Positions 6,479-33,974 of a stretch of DNA of 64,000 nucleotides are shown piece after piece. The notes under the pieces were generated by a model. It had not been told where the DNA came from. It did not search any database and was given only the letters and a program-made list of their open reading frames with translations. Both the position numbers and the translations under genes were made by a program. Location of the stretch: assembly GCA_000146045.2 (NCBI GenBank), contig BK006937.2, forward strand, positions 1 through 64,000, in the 5' to 3' direction. Source of the DNA: TPA_inf: Saccharomyces. Its lineage: Eukaryota. Each line of letters starts with the position of its first letter. The first letter of the stretch is position 1.

Positions 6479-8326
6479 TCAACATCCTAATTTCTTGTTA
6501 CTTCGATTATGTCTAAAAAGTGCCTTGATTTGAGAGAAAATATTTTCCTCATCTGGCAAGACAACCAAACCATCTTCAGTGAATTCTTCGTGTGTCGCCT
6601 TGTCTATTAGTTCCGGGTCTCTCATGAACATTGTAAACGCAAAGAACGGTACCGTACATGCCAAGCCAACCGTCATTATTATTCGTTGAACATATCTGTA
6701 AGATTCAACCACAGCATCTCTTTCGGGTGAGCCCCAAGGATAATCACTAATGAATGTATAAGGTGATGCATATGCTATTTCTGCCAATGTATCGTTTCCA
6801 AGGTTCTTGTAGAGTTGGTTAGGCATGGTTTGTGTCCATATGGCACCAGAAACGGAGGCACCGATAGCAGCGCCTAGCTTTGAAAAGGTATACTGGATGC
6901 CGGTTATTACAGCCATCCTACTATGCGTAGTCATGGCTTGCAGTATGACGATCACTGAATTGCTGCATAGGAGACCACTCAAACCCATGATAACAGATGC
7001 AGCGATAACACCTTCATGAGACCCAGATCCTCCTCTGTATTTGTAAAAAAGGCCCATGCACACCATCCATGCAGCACAACCTCCGATTACAGAAAGTTTC
7101 AGTTTCCTTGTCTTTGCCACCAACAAACTGTAGAATGGAGATGCAGTAGCAGCAACAAAGTCAGGAAGGTTTACTATCCGAGCAGCCGAAGTGGACGATT
7201 CTTTCATCGATACCAGCAAAACAGGATACAGATAGTCACACGAAATGAAAAAGGTGAAAAAATTGAAAAAAGTAACACCAAGGGGTGCCCAAATTCCACG
7301 ATCACTTAGTAATTTGAACGGTAGAAGAGGAGATTTGGCAAATTTGGCCTCCCAATATAAAAAAATGAAAAATAAACAGCCACCTGAAACTAAAGTGGCA
7401 ATTATTTTTGAATTGTGCCACTTCTGTGATGTCTCATTAGCCAACGTCAAAGGGACAAGGATACACCCTAGCGACACAGTTATTAATAATATGCCAACAA
7501 TATCGAGTTTCCAGAATAGAAACACCAAATTCTCAAATAATCCGCCCGTTCTTTCCTTTCTAGCCTGTTCTTTGAGAGATCTCCACTCAGCAGTCTTTGA
7601 AGATTTGTACTTCATATAAAGAATAAGAAATATAATTGGCAAGGCAGAGAGTGGGTAAATAAAAGCCCACATTGCAATATTCCAGGACCAGTTTTTCTGA
7701 GGATTTGCTGCTGTGATAATATTACCTGAAATCCATGGTATTATGATATATGGCCAATATGAGGCGTACTGGTAAAACATTCTCCACTTCAAGGAGGAGA
7801 AATCAGAAAGTATTAATGTCAGGAGCAGATTTGTTCCGACGTATCCACAGTTATAGAAAACCGATCCTGCTGCATACATTGTGAGACGGGTCGCCTGTGA
7901 TTGAATGATGGTTCCCATTATATAAAAAATAGTTGCAACTAAAAAAAGCCTTAGTCTTCCGAAGTGGTCAGAGAGTCTGGAGTAGACAACTTGGGATCCG
8001 ACACTTACAACAGCATTGATAACTTGGACAGTTGAAAGTAAGGAGTGTTCTGAATATGAGTTCGTCGCATAGCCCGTATAGGTCGATCTAAGTGTGTAGT
8101 CTAAACTAATTCCAAACCCACATACAAACGCGGTACTTATCAGTAGAATTTTATATTTCAAGGAATCAAACTGTGCAGACATAATTTCGTTTTCTTTGAG
8201 CTTAAAAAAGGTCGATGTCATAGAGTACGTGTCATCGTTTGAGTGACGTTCTCGCTCAATAATCTCACAGGACTGCCTAATTCCACTTTTTTTATTACTT
8301 GAGGCACCAACAACACTAGAACTCAT
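6479..8326 (-). CDS. GEX1: Major facilitator superfamily transporter, glutathione exchanger (ARN/siderophore-transporter-like)
   Basis: 615 aa with many predicted TM helices. The protein is recognised as Gex1, subtelomeric paralog of GEX2. Coordinates agree with my recollection of the reference. Confidence 0.9.
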
Positions 8327-12385: not shown

Positions 12386-13018
12386 TCATTCTTTCTTCTT
12401 TGCCAGAGGCTCACCGCTCAAGAGGTCCGCTAATTCTGGAGCGATTGTTATTGTTTTTTCTTTTCTTCTTCTATTCGAAACCCAGTTTTTGATTTGAATG
12501 CGAGATAAACTGGTATTCTTCATTAGATTCTCTAGGCCCTTGGTATCTAGATATGGGTTCTCGATGTTCTTTGCAAACCAACTTTCTAGTATTCGGACAT
12601 TTTCTTTTGTAAACCGGTGTCCTCTGTAAGGTTTAGTACTTTTGTTTATCATATCTTGAGTTACCACATTAAATACCAACCCATCCGCCGATTTATTTTT
12701 CTGTGTAAGTTGATAATTACTTCTATCGTTTTCTATGCTGCGCATTTCTTTGAGTAATACAGTAATGGTAGTAGTGAGTTGAGATGTTGTTTGCAACAAC
12801 TTCTTCTCCTCATCACTAATCTTACGGTTTTTGTTGGCCCTAGATAAGAATCCTAATATATCCCTTAATTCAACTTCTTCTTCTGTTGTTACACTCTCTG
12901 GTAACTTAGGTAAATTACAGCAAATAGAAAAGAGCTTTTTATTTATGTCTAGTATGCTGGATTTAAACTCATCTGTGATTTGTGGATTTAAAAGGTCTTT
13001 AATGGGTATTTTATTCAT
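12386..13018 (-). CDS. HMLALPHA2: Silenced copy of the alpha2 homeodomain repressor
   Basis: 210 aa, [13 protein letters not shown]...; homeodomain [42 protein letters not shown]. Confidence 0.95.
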
Positions 13019-13281: not shown

Positions 13282-13809
13282 ATGTTTACTTCGAAGCCTG
13301 CTTTCAAAATTAAGAACAAAGCATCCAAATCATACAGAAACACAGCGGTTTCAAAAAAGCTGAAAGAAAAACGTCTAGCTGAGCATGTGAGGCCAAGCTG
13401 CTTCAATATTATTCGACCACTCAAGAAAGATATCCAGATTCCTGTTCCTTCCTCTCGATTTTTAAATAAAATCCAAATTCACAGGATAGCGTCTGGAAGT
13501 CAAAATACTCAGTTTCGACAGTTCAATAAGACATCTATAAAATCTTCAAAGAAATATTTAAACTCATTTATGGCTTTTAGAGCATATTACTCACAGTTTG
13601 GCTCCGGTGTAAAACAAAATGTCTTGTCTTCTCTGCTCGCTGAAGAATGGCACGCGGACAAAATGCAGCACGGAATATGGGACTACTTCGCGCAACAGTA
13701 TAATTTTATAAACCCTGGTTTTGGTTTTGTAGAGTGGTTGACGAATAATTATGCTGAAGTACGTGGTGACGGATATTGGGAAGATGTGTTTGTACATTTG
13801 GCCTTATAG
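13282..13809 (+). CDS. HMLALPHA1: Silenced copy of the alpha1 transcriptional co-activator
   Basis: 175 aa, MFTSKPAFKIKNK.... It is divergent from alpha2 with a 263 bp shared promoter region. The HO site lies within its 3' part. Confidence 0.95.
   Translation: MFTSKPAFKIKNKASKSYRNTAVSKKLKEKRLAEHVRPSCFNIIRPLKKDIQIPVPSSRFLNKIQIHRIASGSQNTQFRQFNKTSIKSSKKYLNSFMAFRAYYSQFGSGVKQNVLSSLLAEEWHADKMQHGIWDYFAQQYNFINPGFGFVEWLTNNYAEVRGDGYWEDVFVHLAL
13691..13718 (+). other. HO endonuclease recognition site at the Yalpha/Z1 junction
   Basis: The sequence CGCAACAGTATAATTTTATAAACCCTGG is the canonical MAT-alpha HO site. Confidence 0.85.
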
Positions 13810-27359: not shown

Positions 27360-27928
27360 TCAACTTTCTTTTCTTCTTCCTTTACTTTTATTCATCTCCT
27401 CTTTACTTCTTACCTCAGAGTCGAACATTGAAATCATTTCCCGCGAATTTTTCGATTATAATTACCCTTTCTACTTAACAAGAAGCAATAAGAGCAAAGG
27501 GGCGAAATGCTTGTCCCATACTTTGGCTTTTGGATGTGACATTAGGAGCCTTATCTCCTCTTAATGCCTTAAGTCAAAAAATAGTTTTTGGGATATATCT
27601 TGTGATCAAATGCTTTGCAAAAGGGTAAAACAGCGTTTACAATAGGATAGCCAAAAGTAAAAAAAAAAAAAAAAAAAAAAAGAAGGAAGTTAGTATCGAG
27701 CTCAAACAATTTTAGTTTTGCTGGACATATTTTCAGTTTCATTACTGTATATTTGCAGCTTGGTTTTTGTCGCTCTGTAGTCTTGTTTCACACTTCGTCA
27801 TTTCCGAGTTTCATCTTGCGACATAACTTGTTTCAACTTTTCAAGTGCGACTTTTTGTTAAATATTATGACATAGAAGAAAGTAGAACAGCCATTATAAA
27901 ACAAAAGAGAAGTGAGAATACTATTAAG

Positions 27929-28936
27929 ATGGCATTCCAAGATCCAACTTACGACCAGAATAAAAGCAGACACATCAACAACAGTCACTTGCAAGGGCCA
28001 AACCAGGAAACAATAGAAATGAAATCTAAACACGTATCATTCAAACCCTCTAGAGACTTCCATACAAACGATTACTCGAATAACTACATTCATGGGAAGT
28101 CGCTACCGCAACAGCATGTTACTAATATTGAGAATAGGGTTGATGGCTATCCAAAACTTCAGAAATTATTTCAGGCGAAAGCTAAACAAATAAATCAATT
28201 TGCCACTACGCCATTTGGGTGTAAAATCGGAATAGATTCCATTGTTCCAACGTTGAATCACTGGATACAGAACGAAAATTTGACTTTCGACGTGGTGATG
28301 ATTGGCTGCTTAACAGAAAATCAGTTTATTTACCCAATTTTAACCCAATTGCCATTGGATAGATTGATCTCCAAACCAGGTTTCCTGTTCATCTGGGCCA
28401 ATTCTCAAAAAATCAATGAACTTACTAAACTTTTGAATAATGAAATATGGGCTAAAAAGTTTAGAAGAAGTGAAGAATTGGTTTTTGTTCCTATTGACAA
28501 GAAATCACCGTTTTATCCAGGTTTAGATCAGGACGATGAAACGTTGATGGAAAAAATGCAATGGCACTGTTGGATGTGTATCACAGGTACAGTAAGGAGG
28601 TCTACAGATGGACATCTTATTCATTGTAACGTAGACACTGACTTGAGTATCGAAACGAAGGACACCACTAATGGTGCTGTACCATCCCATTTGTATCGTA
28701 TTGCAGAAAACTTCTCTACCGCGACTAGACGATTACATATTATTCCTGCAAGGACTGGTTACGAGACACCCGTCAAAGTAAGACCTGGCTGGGTTATAGT
28801 GAGCCCAGATGTTATGTTGGATAACTTCTCACCCAAGAGATATAAAGAAGAGATAGCTAATTTAGGTTCGAATATCCCATTAAAAAATGAGATTGAGCTG
28901 TTAAGACCAAGAAGTCCAGTACAAAAAGCACAATAA
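27929..28936 (+). CDS. KAR4: MT-A70-family (METTL14-like) transcription/karyogamy factor
   Basis: 335 aa from MAFQDPTYDQ. A second in-frame Met at codon 31 (28019) is consistent with the known two isoforms. The track start at 27845 is a GTG. Confidence 0.9.
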   Translation: MAFQDPTYDQNKSRHINNSHLQGPNQETIEMKSKHVSFKPSRDFHTNDYSNNYIHGKSLPQQHVTNIENRVDGYPKLQKLFQAKAKQINQFATTPFGCKIGIDSIVPTLNHWIQNENLTFDVVMIGCLTENQFIYPILTQLPLDRLISKPGFLFIWANSQKINELTKLLNNEIWAKKFRRSEELVFVPIDKKSPFYPGLDQDDETLMEKMQWHCWMCITGTVRRSTDGHLIHCNVDTDLSIETKDTTNGAVPSHLYRIAENFSTATRRLHIIPARTGYETPVKVRPGWVIVSPDVMLDNFSPKRYKEEIANLGSNIPLKNEIELLRPRSPVQKAQ

Positions 28937-28999
28937 AGCATCAACACATAAATCCTTGCTTAGCTCAATTAAATATACTAGTAAATAAGTATATAAACA

Positions 29000-30700
29000 A
29001 TAATTTTGCATTTTATTTTACTGGAAACTCTTCTCAAAACCAAATTGCGCAAGGATTGATTCAGTACAATTATGCAAACTCGAAAAGTAAATAAACAAAA
29101 AGATACAGTTGAGTGAAAGGTAAATAAACATTATTCTACTTGATTTTCCTCTGTTTTTTCCATTTTTCTTTTTTGTCTTTTCGTGTTCTAGCGTGTTCAC
29201 TTTTTCAGCCATGTAATTACTTAAATAGGAAGTTTACACGATGTTCTCGCATAAAAAGCTGGAAGTGCAGAACAAAGAGGAAGAAAATAGGAACAGAGAA
29301 TTTGTTTGTTTATTTGTTTGTTTGCTTGTTTGTTTGTTTGTTTTGATTTGAAGTCGAGGTACTTATTCGAAATAATTATTTTGCCCAGGGTTTTGGATAG
29401 TTTTTTGTTTTCCAATTAGATTTTTAGAAATATTTTATCATAGTTTTTTGTTTATTTATTTGTTTATTTATTTGTTGATTTGTTTATTTATTTGTTGGTT
29501 TGTTTATTTAAGTTTGTAAATGTTTAATAAACAAAACAATATTTGCAAGCCATTGAAAACTTTGTAAATTTGTTTGAGAATTTACGAAACAATGAAAATT
29601 AAGGACTCTTTGATGGTGAACGAATTACTACTTTGCAGCAGGTAATTCTCTAAAACTCAGAAACAAGGCATGTATTTTTCACTAGGAAAAAGAAGGAAAA
29701 TGGGACTACAGTATTAGGGAAACAGGATTAAAATTCGTAGGTAATAATAACCCATACTTTCATTGTAGCAGTACTTTCGTTAATAAAATGGATATTGTTG
29801 TACTTCGGTAGATGTTATATTCTAAAGAGTTAAATTATCCAATTCCAAATTCTAGGGACGGTTTCCAAAGATTTGTATTGTCCAGTGACATAATTTTCAC
29901 TAAAACATTGATCTGTTTAATAGGTTTGCTATAAATGCACAATAATTTTTCACCCATGATACCCAATTTCAAGAGAAGCAATTGCTACATATAATTATTT
30001 AGGCTTTACTATCTACTACTCATTGACTGTGCCCTTTTACACAATTATAACAAATATGTCAAAGCAGATGCCATGAACTTTGTATCTGAATTTTTGATTT
30101 CCTTTTAATTCTAATTGCAGACGACGTAAATATAGTTCTGAATTTCAAAGTCACTGTTAATTAATTGTTCTAATTGTTTGGTTTTTTTAATATAAATCAC
30201 TAGTGCTTAAGTTCTGTTGACGCACACAGTACCTATCTTTGATTCCTTCGTGCAAACAGTATTCCGGCACGTTAATTGATACCAAAAAGATTTCAAAATC
30301 AGATGCTTCAAGACTAATTGTATACTTTATGTGACTTCTGGAGTTTAATTTGTTGTATTGATGAGATAATATTGTCTATTATATTGCCAATAACAACCAG
30401 CGCCAGGTGTACTAAGTCGAGATGACAGAAAATTTATAATAAGTGTAAATACAATAAATTTTGTAAATAAATAACTACTTCAATAGAAATCTCAAAGTCG
30501 AAGAAACACAGAACACAGAATGAAACTGGACTAAATGATTTTCAATAAAGGAAAAGCACGAAAAATTTTTTGAACTTTTTTGGGACAGCGTGGATCGTGT
30601 AATTACTGTATTGGGAAATTTACACGATTCTCGACAAATAAAGAAAAAGGCGCGTTTAAAGACTTACAAGCACACCTTTGAATTATTTTTGTTCTCTATG
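29000..30700. promoter_or_regulatory. Recombination enhancer (RE) region of mating-type switching, with two alpha2-Mcm1 operators and Fkh1-site arrays
   Basis: Operator 1 (29210-29240) is CATGTAATTACTTAAATAGGAAGTTTACACG. Operator 2 (30596-30626) is CGTGTAATTACTGTATTGGGAAATTTACACG. TTT(G/A) arrays lie at 29284-29345 and 29440-29515 and contain RYMAAYA forkhead motifs. It lies in the KAR4-SPB1 intergenic region. Confidence 0.8.
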
Positions 30701-31448
30701 ATTATCAAATGTGCTAGTGTTTGCAAGATGGTGCTTTTTTTTCTTTAGATTGCCACGTTTCTGCTCCTCTTTGTGGTTTTCTTTTTTTTTTTCAATCTTA
30801 CTTATAAAATGAATATTTCAATTGATGAATAGCTATATATTGGATACAAAAATTAGCATTTAATCGAAAACTGCAGCATGTATTTAATCGAAAACTACAG
30901 CATGTAGCTATGATACGACAGAAGATTTTTGTTTTTATAGTTAAGTCAAGAAGAAATTCTATTTGTCCAGCAATCCGGCGCAAAGAAGACTACTAAAGGG
31001 TATTGAAAAATTTCTAGAACCAGAAATAATCGAAAGCATTACTTTTTTTGGCTCTATAAAGGAGTTCTGGACAGCTTGAACTTCCGAAGTCTGTCTGTTT
31101 AGCTCGTTAAGATAAATCTCAAAAGAGTAGCAAGCAGGTGGGAGGGATAATTTGGATTAAAGTGTATATATTGCGTATATATAGCCACGTAAACCTCACA
31201 CTATTGAGTTTAAACATTTTTCACCTTACGTTATTATTCTTTTGTCTAATTTTAATCTCCTCCAGTATACTAAAACCGCAAAAGCGGGTTACCCAGCTTG
31301 TTTCTTTTTGTCTGAAAAATTTTTTGCGATGCCCATTATGAAAAATTGGCAATAATAGTATAGTAGTTAGTTTAAGTTTAGATTCTTTCAATACTCATTC
31401 TGCTTCAGTTTGTAGTTAGATTTAACTCAATAGAGGTGATTGGCAAAA

Positions 31449-33974
31449 ATGGGTAAGACACAAAAGAAGAATAGTAAGGGACGTTTAGATAGATACTATT
31501 ATCTAGCAAAGGAGAAAGGTTATCGTGCTCGTTCATCCTTTAAGATTATTCAGATTAATGAAAAGTATGGCCACTTCTTAGAAAAATCGAAGGTTGTTAT
31601 TGATCTGTGTGCTGCTCCTGGTTCATGGTGTCAAGTTGCATCCAAACTCTGTCCTGTCAACTCCTTAATTATTGGTGTTGATATTGTTCCAATGAAGCCG
31701 ATGCCCAATGTTATAACTTTTCAAAGTGATATTACAACAGAAGATTGTAGATCAAAATTGAGGGGTTATATGAAGACTTGGAAAGCTGATACAGTGTTGC
31801 ATGATGGTGCTCCTAATGTTGGTTTGGGTTGGGTTCAGGATGCTTTCACCCAATCTCAATTAACCTTACAAGCTTTGAAGTTGGCCGTCGAAAATTTGGT
31901 GGTGAACGGTACTTTTGTTACTAAAATTTTCAGATCCAAGGATTATAATAAATTGATTTGGGTTTTCCAACAATTGTTTGAGAAAGTTGAAGCCACAAAA
32001 CCACCCGCATCAAGAAATGTTTCTGCAGAAATTTTTGTAGTGTGTAAAGGTTTCAAGGCACCAAAGAGGCTGGACCCAAGATTACTGGATCCAAAAGAAG
32101 TTTTTGAAGAATTGCCAGATGGGCAACAGAATATGGAGTCCAAGATTTATAATCCCGAAAAAAAAGTTAGAAAAAGACAAGGTTATGAGGAAGGTGATAA
32201 TTTACTGTATCATGAAACCTCAATTTTGGATTTTGTCAGGACGGAAGACCCAATAAGCATGCTTGGAGAAATGAATAAGTTTACAATTGATGAGAATGAC
32301 CATGAATGGAAGATCTTGAAGAAATTGAAACAAACCACAGACGAGTTCCGTTCCTGTATTGAAGATTTAAAAGTCTTGGGTAAAAAGGATTTTAAAATGA
32401 TCCTAAGATGGAGAAAGATTGCAAGGGAAATCTTGGGCATCGAAGTTAAGGACGACGCTAAAACAGAAATTGAAGTAGTACCGTTAACAGAAGAGGAGCA
32501 AATTGAAAAAGATTTGCAAGGTTTACAGGAGAAGCAGCGTCTAAATGTCAAGCGCGAAAGAAGAAGGAAGAACGAAATGAAGCAAAAGGAACTACAGAGA
32601 ATGCAAATGAACATGATAACCCCCACTGATATTGGTATTGAAGCCGCAAGTTTGGGTAAAGAATCGTTGTTTAATTTGAAAACTGCAGAAAAGACTGGTA
32701 TCTTGAACGACTTGGCGAAGGGTAAGAAAAGAATGATTTTTACAGACGATGAATTAGCCAAAGATAATGATATTTACATTGATGAAAACATCATGATCAA
32801 AGATAAGGATTCTGCCGCTGATGCGGACGATTTAGAAAGCGAGTTGAATGCCATGTATAGTGATTATAAAACTAGAAGGTCGGAAAGGGATGCCAAGTTT
32901 AGAGCTAAGCAAGCACGTGGTGGCGATAATGAGGAAGAATGGACCGGTTTTAATGAGGGAAGTCTAGAAAAGAAAGAAGAGGAAGGTAAAGATTATATCG
33001 AAGACAATGACGATGAAGGTGTCGAAGGAGACTCCGATGATGATGAAGCCATCACCAATTTGATTAGCAAATTGAAGGGACAAGAAGGTGATCACAAATT
33101 GAGTAGTAAGGCACGTATGATTTTCAATGATCCGATATTTAATAACGTTGAACCTGATTTGCCAGTAAATACCGTCAATGATGGCATAATGAGTTCCGAG
33201 TCTGTTGGTGATATTTCTAAATTAAATAAGAAAAGAAAACATGAAGAAATGCACCAGAAACAAGATGAAGCAGATTCTTCGGATGAGAGTTCAAGTGATG
33301 ACTCCGATTTCGAAATTGTGGCCAACGATAATGCATCAGAAGAATTCGATTCTGATTATGATTCAGAGGAAGAAAAAAATCAAACAAAGAAAGAAAAGCA
33401 TTCCAGAGACATTGATATTGCTACTGTTGAAGCCATGACTTTGGCACATCAGTTAGCATTGGGTCAGAAAAACAAGCATGATCTTGTTGATGAAGGTTTC
33501 AATAGATACACCTTCCGTGACACCGAAAATTTGCCAGATTGGTTTTTAGAAGATGAAAAGGAACATTCAAAGATAAATAAGCCGATTACTAAGGAGGCAG
33601 CGATGGCAATTAAAGAAAAAATAAAGGCAATGAACGCCCGTCCTATTAAGAAGGTTGCTGAAGCTAAGGCAAGAAAGAGGATGCGTGCCGTAGCTCGGTT
33701 AGAAAAGATCAAGAAGAAGGCGGGCTTGATTAACGATGATTCAGACAAGACAGAGAAGGACAAGGCTGAAGAAATTTCTAGATTGATGCGTAAGGTTACC
33801 AAAAAACCAAAGACCAAGCCAAAGGTTACTTTGGTTGTTGCCTCAGGTAGGAACAAAGGTTTGGCAGGTAGACCAAAGGGCGTTAAGGGTAAGTATAAGA
33901 TGGTTGATGGTGTCATGAAGAATGAACAAAGAGCCCTAAGACGTATCGCAAAGAAGCATCACAAGAAAAAGTAG
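31449..33974 (+). CDS. SPB1: FtsJ/RrmJ-type 27S pre-rRNA 2'-O-ribose methyltransferase
   Basis: 841 aa from MGKTQKKNSKGRLDRYYY. The SAM-binding motif DLCAAPGSW is present. It has an acidic, Ser-rich middle and a basic tail. The track ORF starts at TTG 31440. Confidence 0.95.
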   Translation: MGKTQKKNSKGRLDRYYYLAKEKGYRARSSFKIIQINEKYGHFLEKSKVVIDLCAAPGSWCQVASKLCPVNSLIIGVDIVPMKPMPNVITFQSDITTEDCRSKLRGYMKTWKADTVLHDGAPNVGLGWVQDAFTQSQLTLQALKLAVENLVVNGTFVTKIFRSKDYNKLIWVFQQLFEKVEATKPPASRNVSAEIFVVCKGFKAPKRLDPRLLDPKEVFEELPDGQQNMESKIYNPEKKVRKRQGYEEGDNLLYHETSILDFVRTEDPISMLGEMNKFTIDENDHEWKILKKLKQTTDEFRSCIEDLKVLGKKDFKMILRWRKIAREILGIEVKDDAKTEIEVVPLTEEEQIEKDLQGLQEKQRLNVKRERRRKNEMKQKELQRMQMNMITPTDIGIEAASLGKESLFNLKTAEKTGILNDLAKGKKRMIFTDDELAKDNDIYIDENIMIKDKDSAADADDLESELNAMYSDYKTRRSERDAKFRAKQARGGDNEEEWTGFNEGSLEKKEEEGKDYIEDNDDEGVEGDSDDDEAITNLISKLKGQEGDHKLSSKARMIFNDPIFNNVEPDLPVNTVNDGIMSSESVGDISKLNKKRKHEEMHQKQDEADSSDESSSDDSDFEIVANDNASEEFDSDYDSEEEKNQTKKEKHSRDIDIATVEAMTLAHQLALGQKNKHDLVDEGFNRYTFRDTENLPDWFLEDEKEHSKINKPITKEAAMAIKEKIKAMNARPIKKVAEAKARKRMRAVARLEKIKKKAGLINDDSDKTEKDKAEEISRLMRKVTKKPKTKPKVTLVVASGRNKGLAGRPKGVKGKYKMVDGVMKNEQRALRRIAKKHHKKK

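Follow-up and report, generated by a model that had tools for sequence, protein, structure and literature searches.

Anatomy and conservation of the KAR4-SPB1 spacer of Saccharomyces cerevisiae chromosome III, site of the mating-type recombination enhancer

The window analysed here, the first 64,000 nt of Saccharomyces cerevisiae chromosome III, contains between KAR4 and SPB1 a spacer of 2512 bp (30% GC) which is almost certainly the bipartite recombination enhancer (RE) of this chromosome, the cis-element that biases donor choice in mating-type switching. The upstream neighbour, KAR4 (27929-28936), encodes a 335-aa protein with an MT-A70 domain whose sequence clusters with S. cerevisiae Kar4p (NP_009876); the downstream neighbour, SPB1 (31449-33974), encodes an 841-aa protein with FtsJ, DUF3381, and Spb1_C domains. 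Translation and Pfam searches thus bear out the names given to both flanks in an earlier, sequence-only reading of this DNA. About 15 kb to the left of the spacer is the HMLalpha cassette (12.4-13.8 kb), with genes for the homeodomain protein HMLalpha2 (12386-13018, - strand) and the MATalpha1 HMG-box protein HMLalpha1 (13282-13809, + strand), both identified by Pfam; the spacer is therefore some 15-17 kb centromere-proximal to HML, where the RE is located.

Window coordinates are those of S288C chromosome III as used in the RE literature, because the published RDT1 open reading frame (ORF; 30910-30996) starts with ATG in the window and translates to exactly 28 aa, and because the final base of the second operator described below is also where the published DPS2 deletion (30557-30626) stops. 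The published Sir2/condensin/Fob1 site (30701-30800) likewise coincides with the window map. The RE is already known from dissection between 1996 and 2026, the window being the reference sequence; its anatomy, statistical excess of sites, conservation, and match to published coordinates come from this analysis, and protein binding and function are all taken from the literature. The spacer had been described as a gene-free interval of 2.5 kb; the length is right, but it does hold the 28-codon RDT1 ORF and, according to the literature, the autonomously replicating sequence (ARS) ARS304. Its features, including two Swi4/Swi6 boxes (SCBs) and repeats delimited with Tandem Repeats Finder (TRF), are:

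28981-28999, + strand: forkhead-type motifs GTAAATA and ATAAACA, just past the KAR4 stop codon
29082-29097 and 29115-29130 (within 29080-29133), + strand: two copies of the direct repeat GAAA(A/G)GTAAATAAACA, overlapping forkhead sites
29179-29185, - strand: SCB 1, CACGAAA, 24 bp upstream of operator 1
29210-29240, + strand: operator 1 (DPS1), the 31-mer CATGTAATTACTTAAATAGGAAGTTTACACG
29301-29343, - strand: array 1, (TTTG)x10.8 by TRF, with 8 overlapping RYMAAYA motifs read on the - strand
29443-29545, - strand: array 2, TTT(G/A), with 12 forkhead motifs, flanking ATAAACA and GCAAATA included
30400-30431, no strand assigned: conserved block GCGCCAGGT...GAGATGACAGAAA, with no factor assigned
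30445-30473, + strand: forkhead-type motifs GTAAATA, GTAAATA, and ATAAATA, from a motif scan
30557-30563, + strand: SCB 2, CACGAAA, 32 bp upstream of operator 2
30596-30626, + strand: operator 2 (DPS2), the 31-mer CGTGTAATTACTGTATTGGGAAATTTACACG
30701-30800, + strand: 100-bp Sir2/condensin/Fob1 recruitment site, also the RDT1 promoter (published coordinates)
30858-30905, + strand: 24-bp tandem duplication, ATTTAATCGAAAACTRCAGCATGT x2, directly upstream of the RDT1 ATG
30910-30996, + strand: RDT1 (R2 RNA), a 28-codon MATa-specific small gene (published coordinates, ORF translation)

The two 31-bp alpha2-Mcm1 operators are exactly where they had been placed from the sequence alone, and they are the sole matches in 64 kb to the operator pattern proposed there (allowing up to 3 mismatches), which has no match in 100 dinucleotide-preserving shuffles. 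In place of curated matrices, candidate sites were also scored by Hamming distance to two references from papers unrelated to the RE locus: the 26-nt alpha2-Mcm1 crystal site AATTACCTAATAGGGAAATTTACACG (printed in PMC5946862) and the BAR1 half-operator CATGTAATTACCGTAAAAGG (printed in PMC6004586). Nothing in the window comes closer to the crystal site than operator 2 (4 mismatches) and operator 1 (5), the next best having 8; each of 100 random 64-kb sequences had its best match at 6 or more mismatches (median, 8). Both operators differ from the BAR1 half-operator at 4-5 of 20 positions. They thus scored as operators against an independent site, the point on which their identification had been staked beforehand. 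The alpha2 half-sites are exact (CRTGTAATTAC and TTTACACG) and inverted around a central Mcm1 box, the layout of the 31-bp operators of a-specific genes. The description of the two sites as near-identical and palindromic was looser: 25 of 31 positions are shared, and the inverted repeat is limited to the outer 7-bp arms (self-complementarity 14/31 and 18/31). Similarity between the two regions extends about 18 bp past the 3′ end of the operators (29241-29258 vs. 30627-30643, aligning GATGTTCTCG-CATAAAAAG with GA--TTCTCGACAAATAAAG), and this extension is only partly conserved across species. With similarity reaching only that far beyond the operator, and on the 3′ side, the case for the DPS1 and DPS2 blocks as a recent duplication is weak.

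Forkhead motifs are the second major component. RYMAAYA occurs 41 times in the spacer, counting both strands, and the densest 500 bp (approximately 29051-29550) contain 26 copies, compared with a window mean of 2.1, a next distinct peak of 9 in the 64 kb, and a maximum of 11 per 500 bp in 500 first-order Markov simulations of the spacer. The prediction that reading the TTT(G/A) arrays on the other strand gives multiple forkhead motifs was therefore sound, and the cluster is the densest in the window. Both predicted arrays are present, although the first begins at 29301 and not at 29284, 17 bp too early; the repeat core of the second (29443-29510) has periods of 4, 12, and 20 bp by TRF, with a 20-bp super-period. 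GTAAATA and ATAAACA motifs had been noted near 29060-29130 and 30440-30470, and are found within 29087-29130 (at 29087, 29091, 29120, and 29124) and 30445-30473 (at 30445, 30463, and 30467). The (TTTG)n array is presumably ‘region D’ of the RE, and the second array ‘region E.’ The stretch 29080-29133 we take to be ‘region A’ of Sun et al. 2002. Published Fkh1 position weight matrix (PWM) sites (chr3 29081-29100, 29114-29133, 29331-29353, and 29336-29358) and a region enriched for Fkh1/Fkh2 by chromatin immunoprecipitation (ChIP; chr3 27510-31788; Tables S2 and S3) coincide with this cluster (PMC3913637). Multiple Fkh1-type sites and TTT(G/A) arrays flank operator 1, as in the described RE.

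Nothing in the sequence speaks against this identification, although two details limit it. The Mcm1 boxes of both operators are degenerate (CTTAAATAGG and CTGTATTGGG), with CT..GG in place of CC..GG or CC(A/T)6GG; because of these degenerate centers, the strict Mcm1 box expression CCNNNWWRGG finds no match in the spacer. Also, motifs in the (TTTG)n array are mostly ACAAACA, and just 1 of 8 satisfies the stricter RTAAAYA core. Strict searches for GTAAACA and for the MluI cell-cycle box (MCB) likewise found no match in the spacer.

Conservation was assessed at syntenic loci found through KAR4 orthologues in the same 90% cluster, in S. mikatae (locus L001), S. kudriavzevii (L003 and L004), and S. 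eubayanus (L005). The KAR4-SPB1 spacer is about 2.5 kb in each of these species, and 31% of the columns of the four-species alignment are invariant overall. Invariant columns are distributed as follows:

SCB and operator 1 block: 76%
SCB and operator 2 block: 68%
100-bp site, 30701-30800: 55%
Block 30391-30475: 50%
SPB1 promoter: 50%
Two GTAAATAAACA copies: 44%
First array: 43%
Second array: 31%
Middle of spacer: 21%

No part of the spacer is better conserved than the operator blocks: operator 1 is within a 68-bp block (29178-29245) that is 82% invariant, and operator 2 within a 58-bp block (30576-30633) that is 78% invariant. In every species both operators occupy the orthologous positions and differ from a general consensus by no more than 3 mismatches, compared with a null best of 5-8. 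Forkhead motifs cluster in every species too, at 14-24 per 300 bp where the null maxima are 7-8. The RE subdomains are thus conserved among Saccharomyces species, and the comparison that had been suggested for the arrays and operators came out in their favor in all three relatives.

The SCBs were not part of the sequence-only reading, which also omitted the condensin-loading right half, RDT1, the block at 30400-30431, and the forkhead strand flip described below. The 64 kb contain only nine copies of CACGAAA. The literature places an SCB in RE region C (PMC3320585), and one is found at 29179 (- strand) within the operator-containing subdomain; it is kept in S. mikatae and S. kudriavzevii, with one change in S. 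eubayanus. SCB 2 is invariant in all four species, and its start is the first base of the published DPS2 deletion. Since that deletion (dps2) takes out both SCB 2 and operator 2, their effects are not separated by it. Part of the conserved block at 30400-30431, GATGACAG, resembles what we take to be the alpha1 ‘Q box’ of alpha-specific genes, AATGACAG.

The literature shows two modules, a left one based on Fkh1 and a right one that loads condensin; the earlier view of the spacer as one donor-bias element was incomplete, not wrong. Forkhead sites, an SCB, and operator 1 make up the left module (about 29060-29545), to which Mcm1, Swi4/Swi6, and multiple Fkh1 molecules bind in MATa cells (PMC3320585). 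Mcm1 alone on the operator would keep the chromatin open, with the SCB occupied by Swi4/Swi6 and the arrays by many copies of Fkh1. When HO cuts MAT, the phosphothreonine-binding FHA domains of Fkh1 would then bind phosphoproteins at the break, for example Mph1, a reported FHA partner of Fkh1 (PMC4892509), so that the left arm and HML would be tethered to MAT and HML used about 90% of the time. The RE can be replaced by four LexA sites together with a fusion of LexA to the Fkh1 FHA domain, whose activity requires phosphothreonine binding and which associates with chromatin around the HO break at MAT (PMC3320585). With four copies of a 22-bp Fkh1-site sequence, HML use rises to more than 60% (PMC3320585).

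The right module (about 30550-31000) comprises an SCB, operator 2, the 100-bp site, and RDT1. It recruits Sir2 and condensin only in MATa cells, in a DPS2-dependent manner (PMC6736312); DPS2 gates binding of Fob1, Sir2, and condensin as well as RDT1 expression (PMC6736312, PMC10132618), and recruitment proceeds via Fob1, Tof2, and cohibin (PMC10132618). The module is reported to be an autonomous, oriented anchor for one-directional loop extrusion, which does not depend on the Fkh1 module and creates a loop that joins the RE to the break (PMC13144730). In the proposed sequence of events, Mcm1 at operator 2 would permit Fob1 to bind, Fob1 would bring in Tof2, cohibin, and condensin, with Sir2 recruited too, and condensin would extrude a loop one way, towards MAT, folding the chromosome and making a modest addition to donor bias. 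In MATalpha cells, alpha2-Mcm1 binds the RE, and organized nucleosomes cover it and exclude other proteins (PMC3320585); alpha2 and Mcm1 on both operators would position nucleosomes over the spacer, turning off both modules, and HMR would be used. Within the 100-bp site, the conserved cores are AAATGTGCTAGTGTTTGCA (30707-30725) and TACGTTTCTGCT (about 30755-30766).

One alternative is that the operators are promoters of ordinary a-specific transcription units, R1L/R1S and RDT1, and that it is their RNAs or small protein, not the DNA-bound arrays, that are functional. MATa-specific RNAs do arise next to each operator, R1L and R1S being derived from the RE's left half, and RDT1 is translated (PMC6736312); transcription through the left half has also been proposed to matter (Ercan 2005, as relayed in PMC6736312). 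An a-specific transcript had been mentioned in the sequence-only reading as reported from this region, without being placed: it is RDT1, just outside the interval then marked out, and R1L/R1S are in the left half. However, the RDT1 ORF segment is only 23% invariant in the four species, compared with a conserved promoter and operator, and as a conserved coding gene RDT1 can be rejected: S. mikatae has an unrelated 20-aa peptide in its place, and the ATG is missing in both S. kudriavzevii and S. eubayanus. The 24-bp duplication directly upstream is also present only in S. cerevisiae, with a single copy or none in the other three species. A frame specific to S. cerevisiae behind a conserved promoter therefore fits a young or non-coding gene. 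[quoted passage not shown] This alternative is accordingly judged unlikely, and the reading of the spacer as a bipartite, DNA-bound RE is preferred.

Far less probable still is that the TTT(G/A) arrays are neutral AT-rich microsatellites, with their forkhead content a by-product of low complexity. The spacer does have a low GC content, array length varies between species (18-22% gapped columns), and RYMAAYA occurs on the opposite strand of any TTTG/TTTA repeat. Against this, the arrays persist in all four Saccharomyces species with the same motif, on the same strand, and at the same place with respect to the operator: the (TTTG)n array is present in each, and the second array is strong in S. 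mikatae, if weaker in S. kudriavzevii and S. eubayanus. The strand of the forkhead motifs flips at operator 1 in all four (28937-29600 and orthologous parts): to its left, + to - counts are 7:0, 6:0, 10:0, and 13:0, and to its right 1:21, 2:20, 1:13, and 5:19. Left-hand motifs are all on the + strand and nearly all right-hand ones on the - strand, so the two sides mirror each other across the Mcm1 site. The GTAAATAAACA pairs, which are not repetitive, are conserved base for base in the four species, and published Fkh1 ChIP as well as the function of small RE-derived Fkh1-site modules (PMC3913637, PMC3320585) also contradict a neutral origin. At 28981-28999, the counterpart in the other Saccharomyces is a longer (TAAA/CAAA)n run.

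That operator 2 is conserved on account of a replication origin using Mcm1, and not for mating-type control, is scarcely credible: ARS304 is indeed reported to adjoin the Fob1 site on its upstream side, with the Mcm1/alpha2 site as its mark (PMC10132618), and a one-mismatch match to the ARS consensus is found at 30440-30450 (- strand; another is at 30187), but that match is poorly conserved, the spacer has no exact match to the 11-bp consensus WTTTAYRTTTW, ARS304 is reported to be inactive in the chromosome (PMC10132618), and the conserved operator retains complete alpha2 half-sites, something that an origin could do without.

Several other candidates in or near the spacer were rejected. The ORFs at 29140-29346 (+) and 29221-29415 (-), already dismissed as genes from the sequence alone, have bacterial TTG starts only and no ATG, and encode low-complexity products (LFVYLFVCLFVCLF and KQTNKQANKQINKQ) in a region with indels in the relatives. 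An Rfam scan of 28900-31460 (E<=1) found no known structured RNA; a CRISPR-DR match there is attributable to chance (24.9 bits, vs. a gathering score of 47).

Beyond Saccharomyces, six further species with KAR4-SPB1 synteny were compared: Naumovozyma castellii (locus L006), Nakaseomyces bracarensis (L007), Naumovozyma dairenensis (L008), Kazachstania africana (L009), Vanderwaltozyma polyspora, and Torulaspora globosa. The spacer of N. castellii (L006:7060-7812) has one strong operator-like 31-mer at 7502-7532 (minus strand, CGTGTAATTACCCGATTAGGATAAATACATG), with 4 mismatches compared with a null best of 6. Forkhead motifs reach 17 per 300 bp (null maximum 8), with GTAAACA, GTAAATA, and TGTTTAC on both sides of the operator-like site, and a perfect (TTGT)x11.5 array (L006:7766-7811) is found 230 bp downstream of it. 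In N. dairenensis there is a perfectly palindromic 30-bp operator-like site, CATGTAATTACCCGAATAGGTAATTACATG (L008:7699-7728), flanked by forkhead motifs (L008:7400-7910; 10 per 300 bp vs. a null maximum of 7); a 17-mer there, AAAAGTAAATAAACAAA (L008:7617-7633), is identical to window positions 29083-29099. Neither Naumovozyma spacer has a second operator or an SCB. Nakaseomyces bracarensis has an operator-like site (TTGTAAATTTCCTAAAAAGGATAATTACATG, L007:7283-7313) in which the Mcm1 box is perfect and one alpha2 half-site is good, but no forkhead arrays. The K. africana spacer, at 326 bp (L009:6967-7292), has no room for an RE, and those of V. polyspora and T. globosa have neither an operator nor a forkhead cluster.

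Tentatively, and with doubt slightly outweighing belief, the left, Fkh1-type module may predate the genus Saccharomyces, going by these motif architectures. Because Naumovozyma has no second operator or SCB, the comparison suggests that Saccharomyces acquired the condensin-loading right half, along with the SCBs, at a later stage. The operator and forkhead cluster in the Naumovozyma KAR4-SPB1 spacers may be a lead new to science; no report of a Naumovozyma RE was found in the literature searched, whose coverage did not extend to key older papers. A search with alpha2 homologues for HML locus tags returned no Naumovozyma protein.

Two further observations concern the neighboring genes. The SPB1 promoter (31315-31351) carries an invariant TTTTTTGCGATGCCCATTATGAAAAATTGGCA, and on the SPB1 side in other genera there are one to three copies of GCGATGAG with a nearby AAAATTTT (L006:8420-8445; L007:8560-8600; L008:8368-8395); all three sequences look to us like the polymerase A and C (PAC) and ribosomal RNA processing element (RRPE) motifs, which we take to be those of ribosome-biogenesis genes. 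Five non-Saccharomyces loci have, between a PEX34-like gene and KAR4, an additional gene (L006:4392-5255, L008:4196-5188, L009:4578-5522, L010:3752-4666, and L011:4568-5494) whose product of about 290-330 aa has no Pfam match; the Saccharomyces loci do not have this gene.

For S. cerevisiae itself nothing new is added. That a complex regulatory element could be recognized correctly from its sequence alone serves as a positive control, and a compact coordinate map of all RE parts has been obtained, including the SCBs, the Fob1/condensin site, RDT1, and the unexplained conserved block. If functional, the RE-like Naumovozyma cluster would date the origin of donor-preference control, and would separate the origins of the Fkh1 and condensin modules. 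Only this Naumovozyma architecture, the second SCB, the motif polarity, and the block at 30400-30431 might repay further work.

Compared with known systems, the element in the window is at the same locus as the S. cerevisiae RE (Wu & Haber 1996; Szeto 1997; Sun 2002; Li 2012; Li 2019; Dinda 2023), and its flanking genes, coordinates, DPS1 and DPS2, Fkh1 arrays, SCB, 100-bp condensin site, and RDT1 all match, with no difference. Its operators share with those of a-specific genes (STE6, BAR1, and others) the 31-bp length, the alpha2 half-sites, and the central Mcm1 box, with 4-5 mismatches of 26 to the crystal site, but differ in the degeneracy of that box and in controlling a recombination and chromosome-folding element, not a conventional protein-coding a-specific gene.

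The right module has the same hierarchy of Fob1, Tof2, cohibin, and condensin as the replication fork barrier of the ribosomal DNA, and binds Sir2 too; unlike that barrier, the RE site is gated by an alpha2-repressible Mcm1 site and is therefore mating-type specific. The SRE2 and SRE3 elements of Schizosaccharomyces pombe are likewise cis elements, specific to cell type, through which the choice of donor in mating-type switching is biased, but their sequence and factors are unrelated: they adjoin the donors and work with Swi2/Swi5 in heterochromatin, whereas the RE features Fkh1, Mcm1, and condensin acting from 15-17 kb away.

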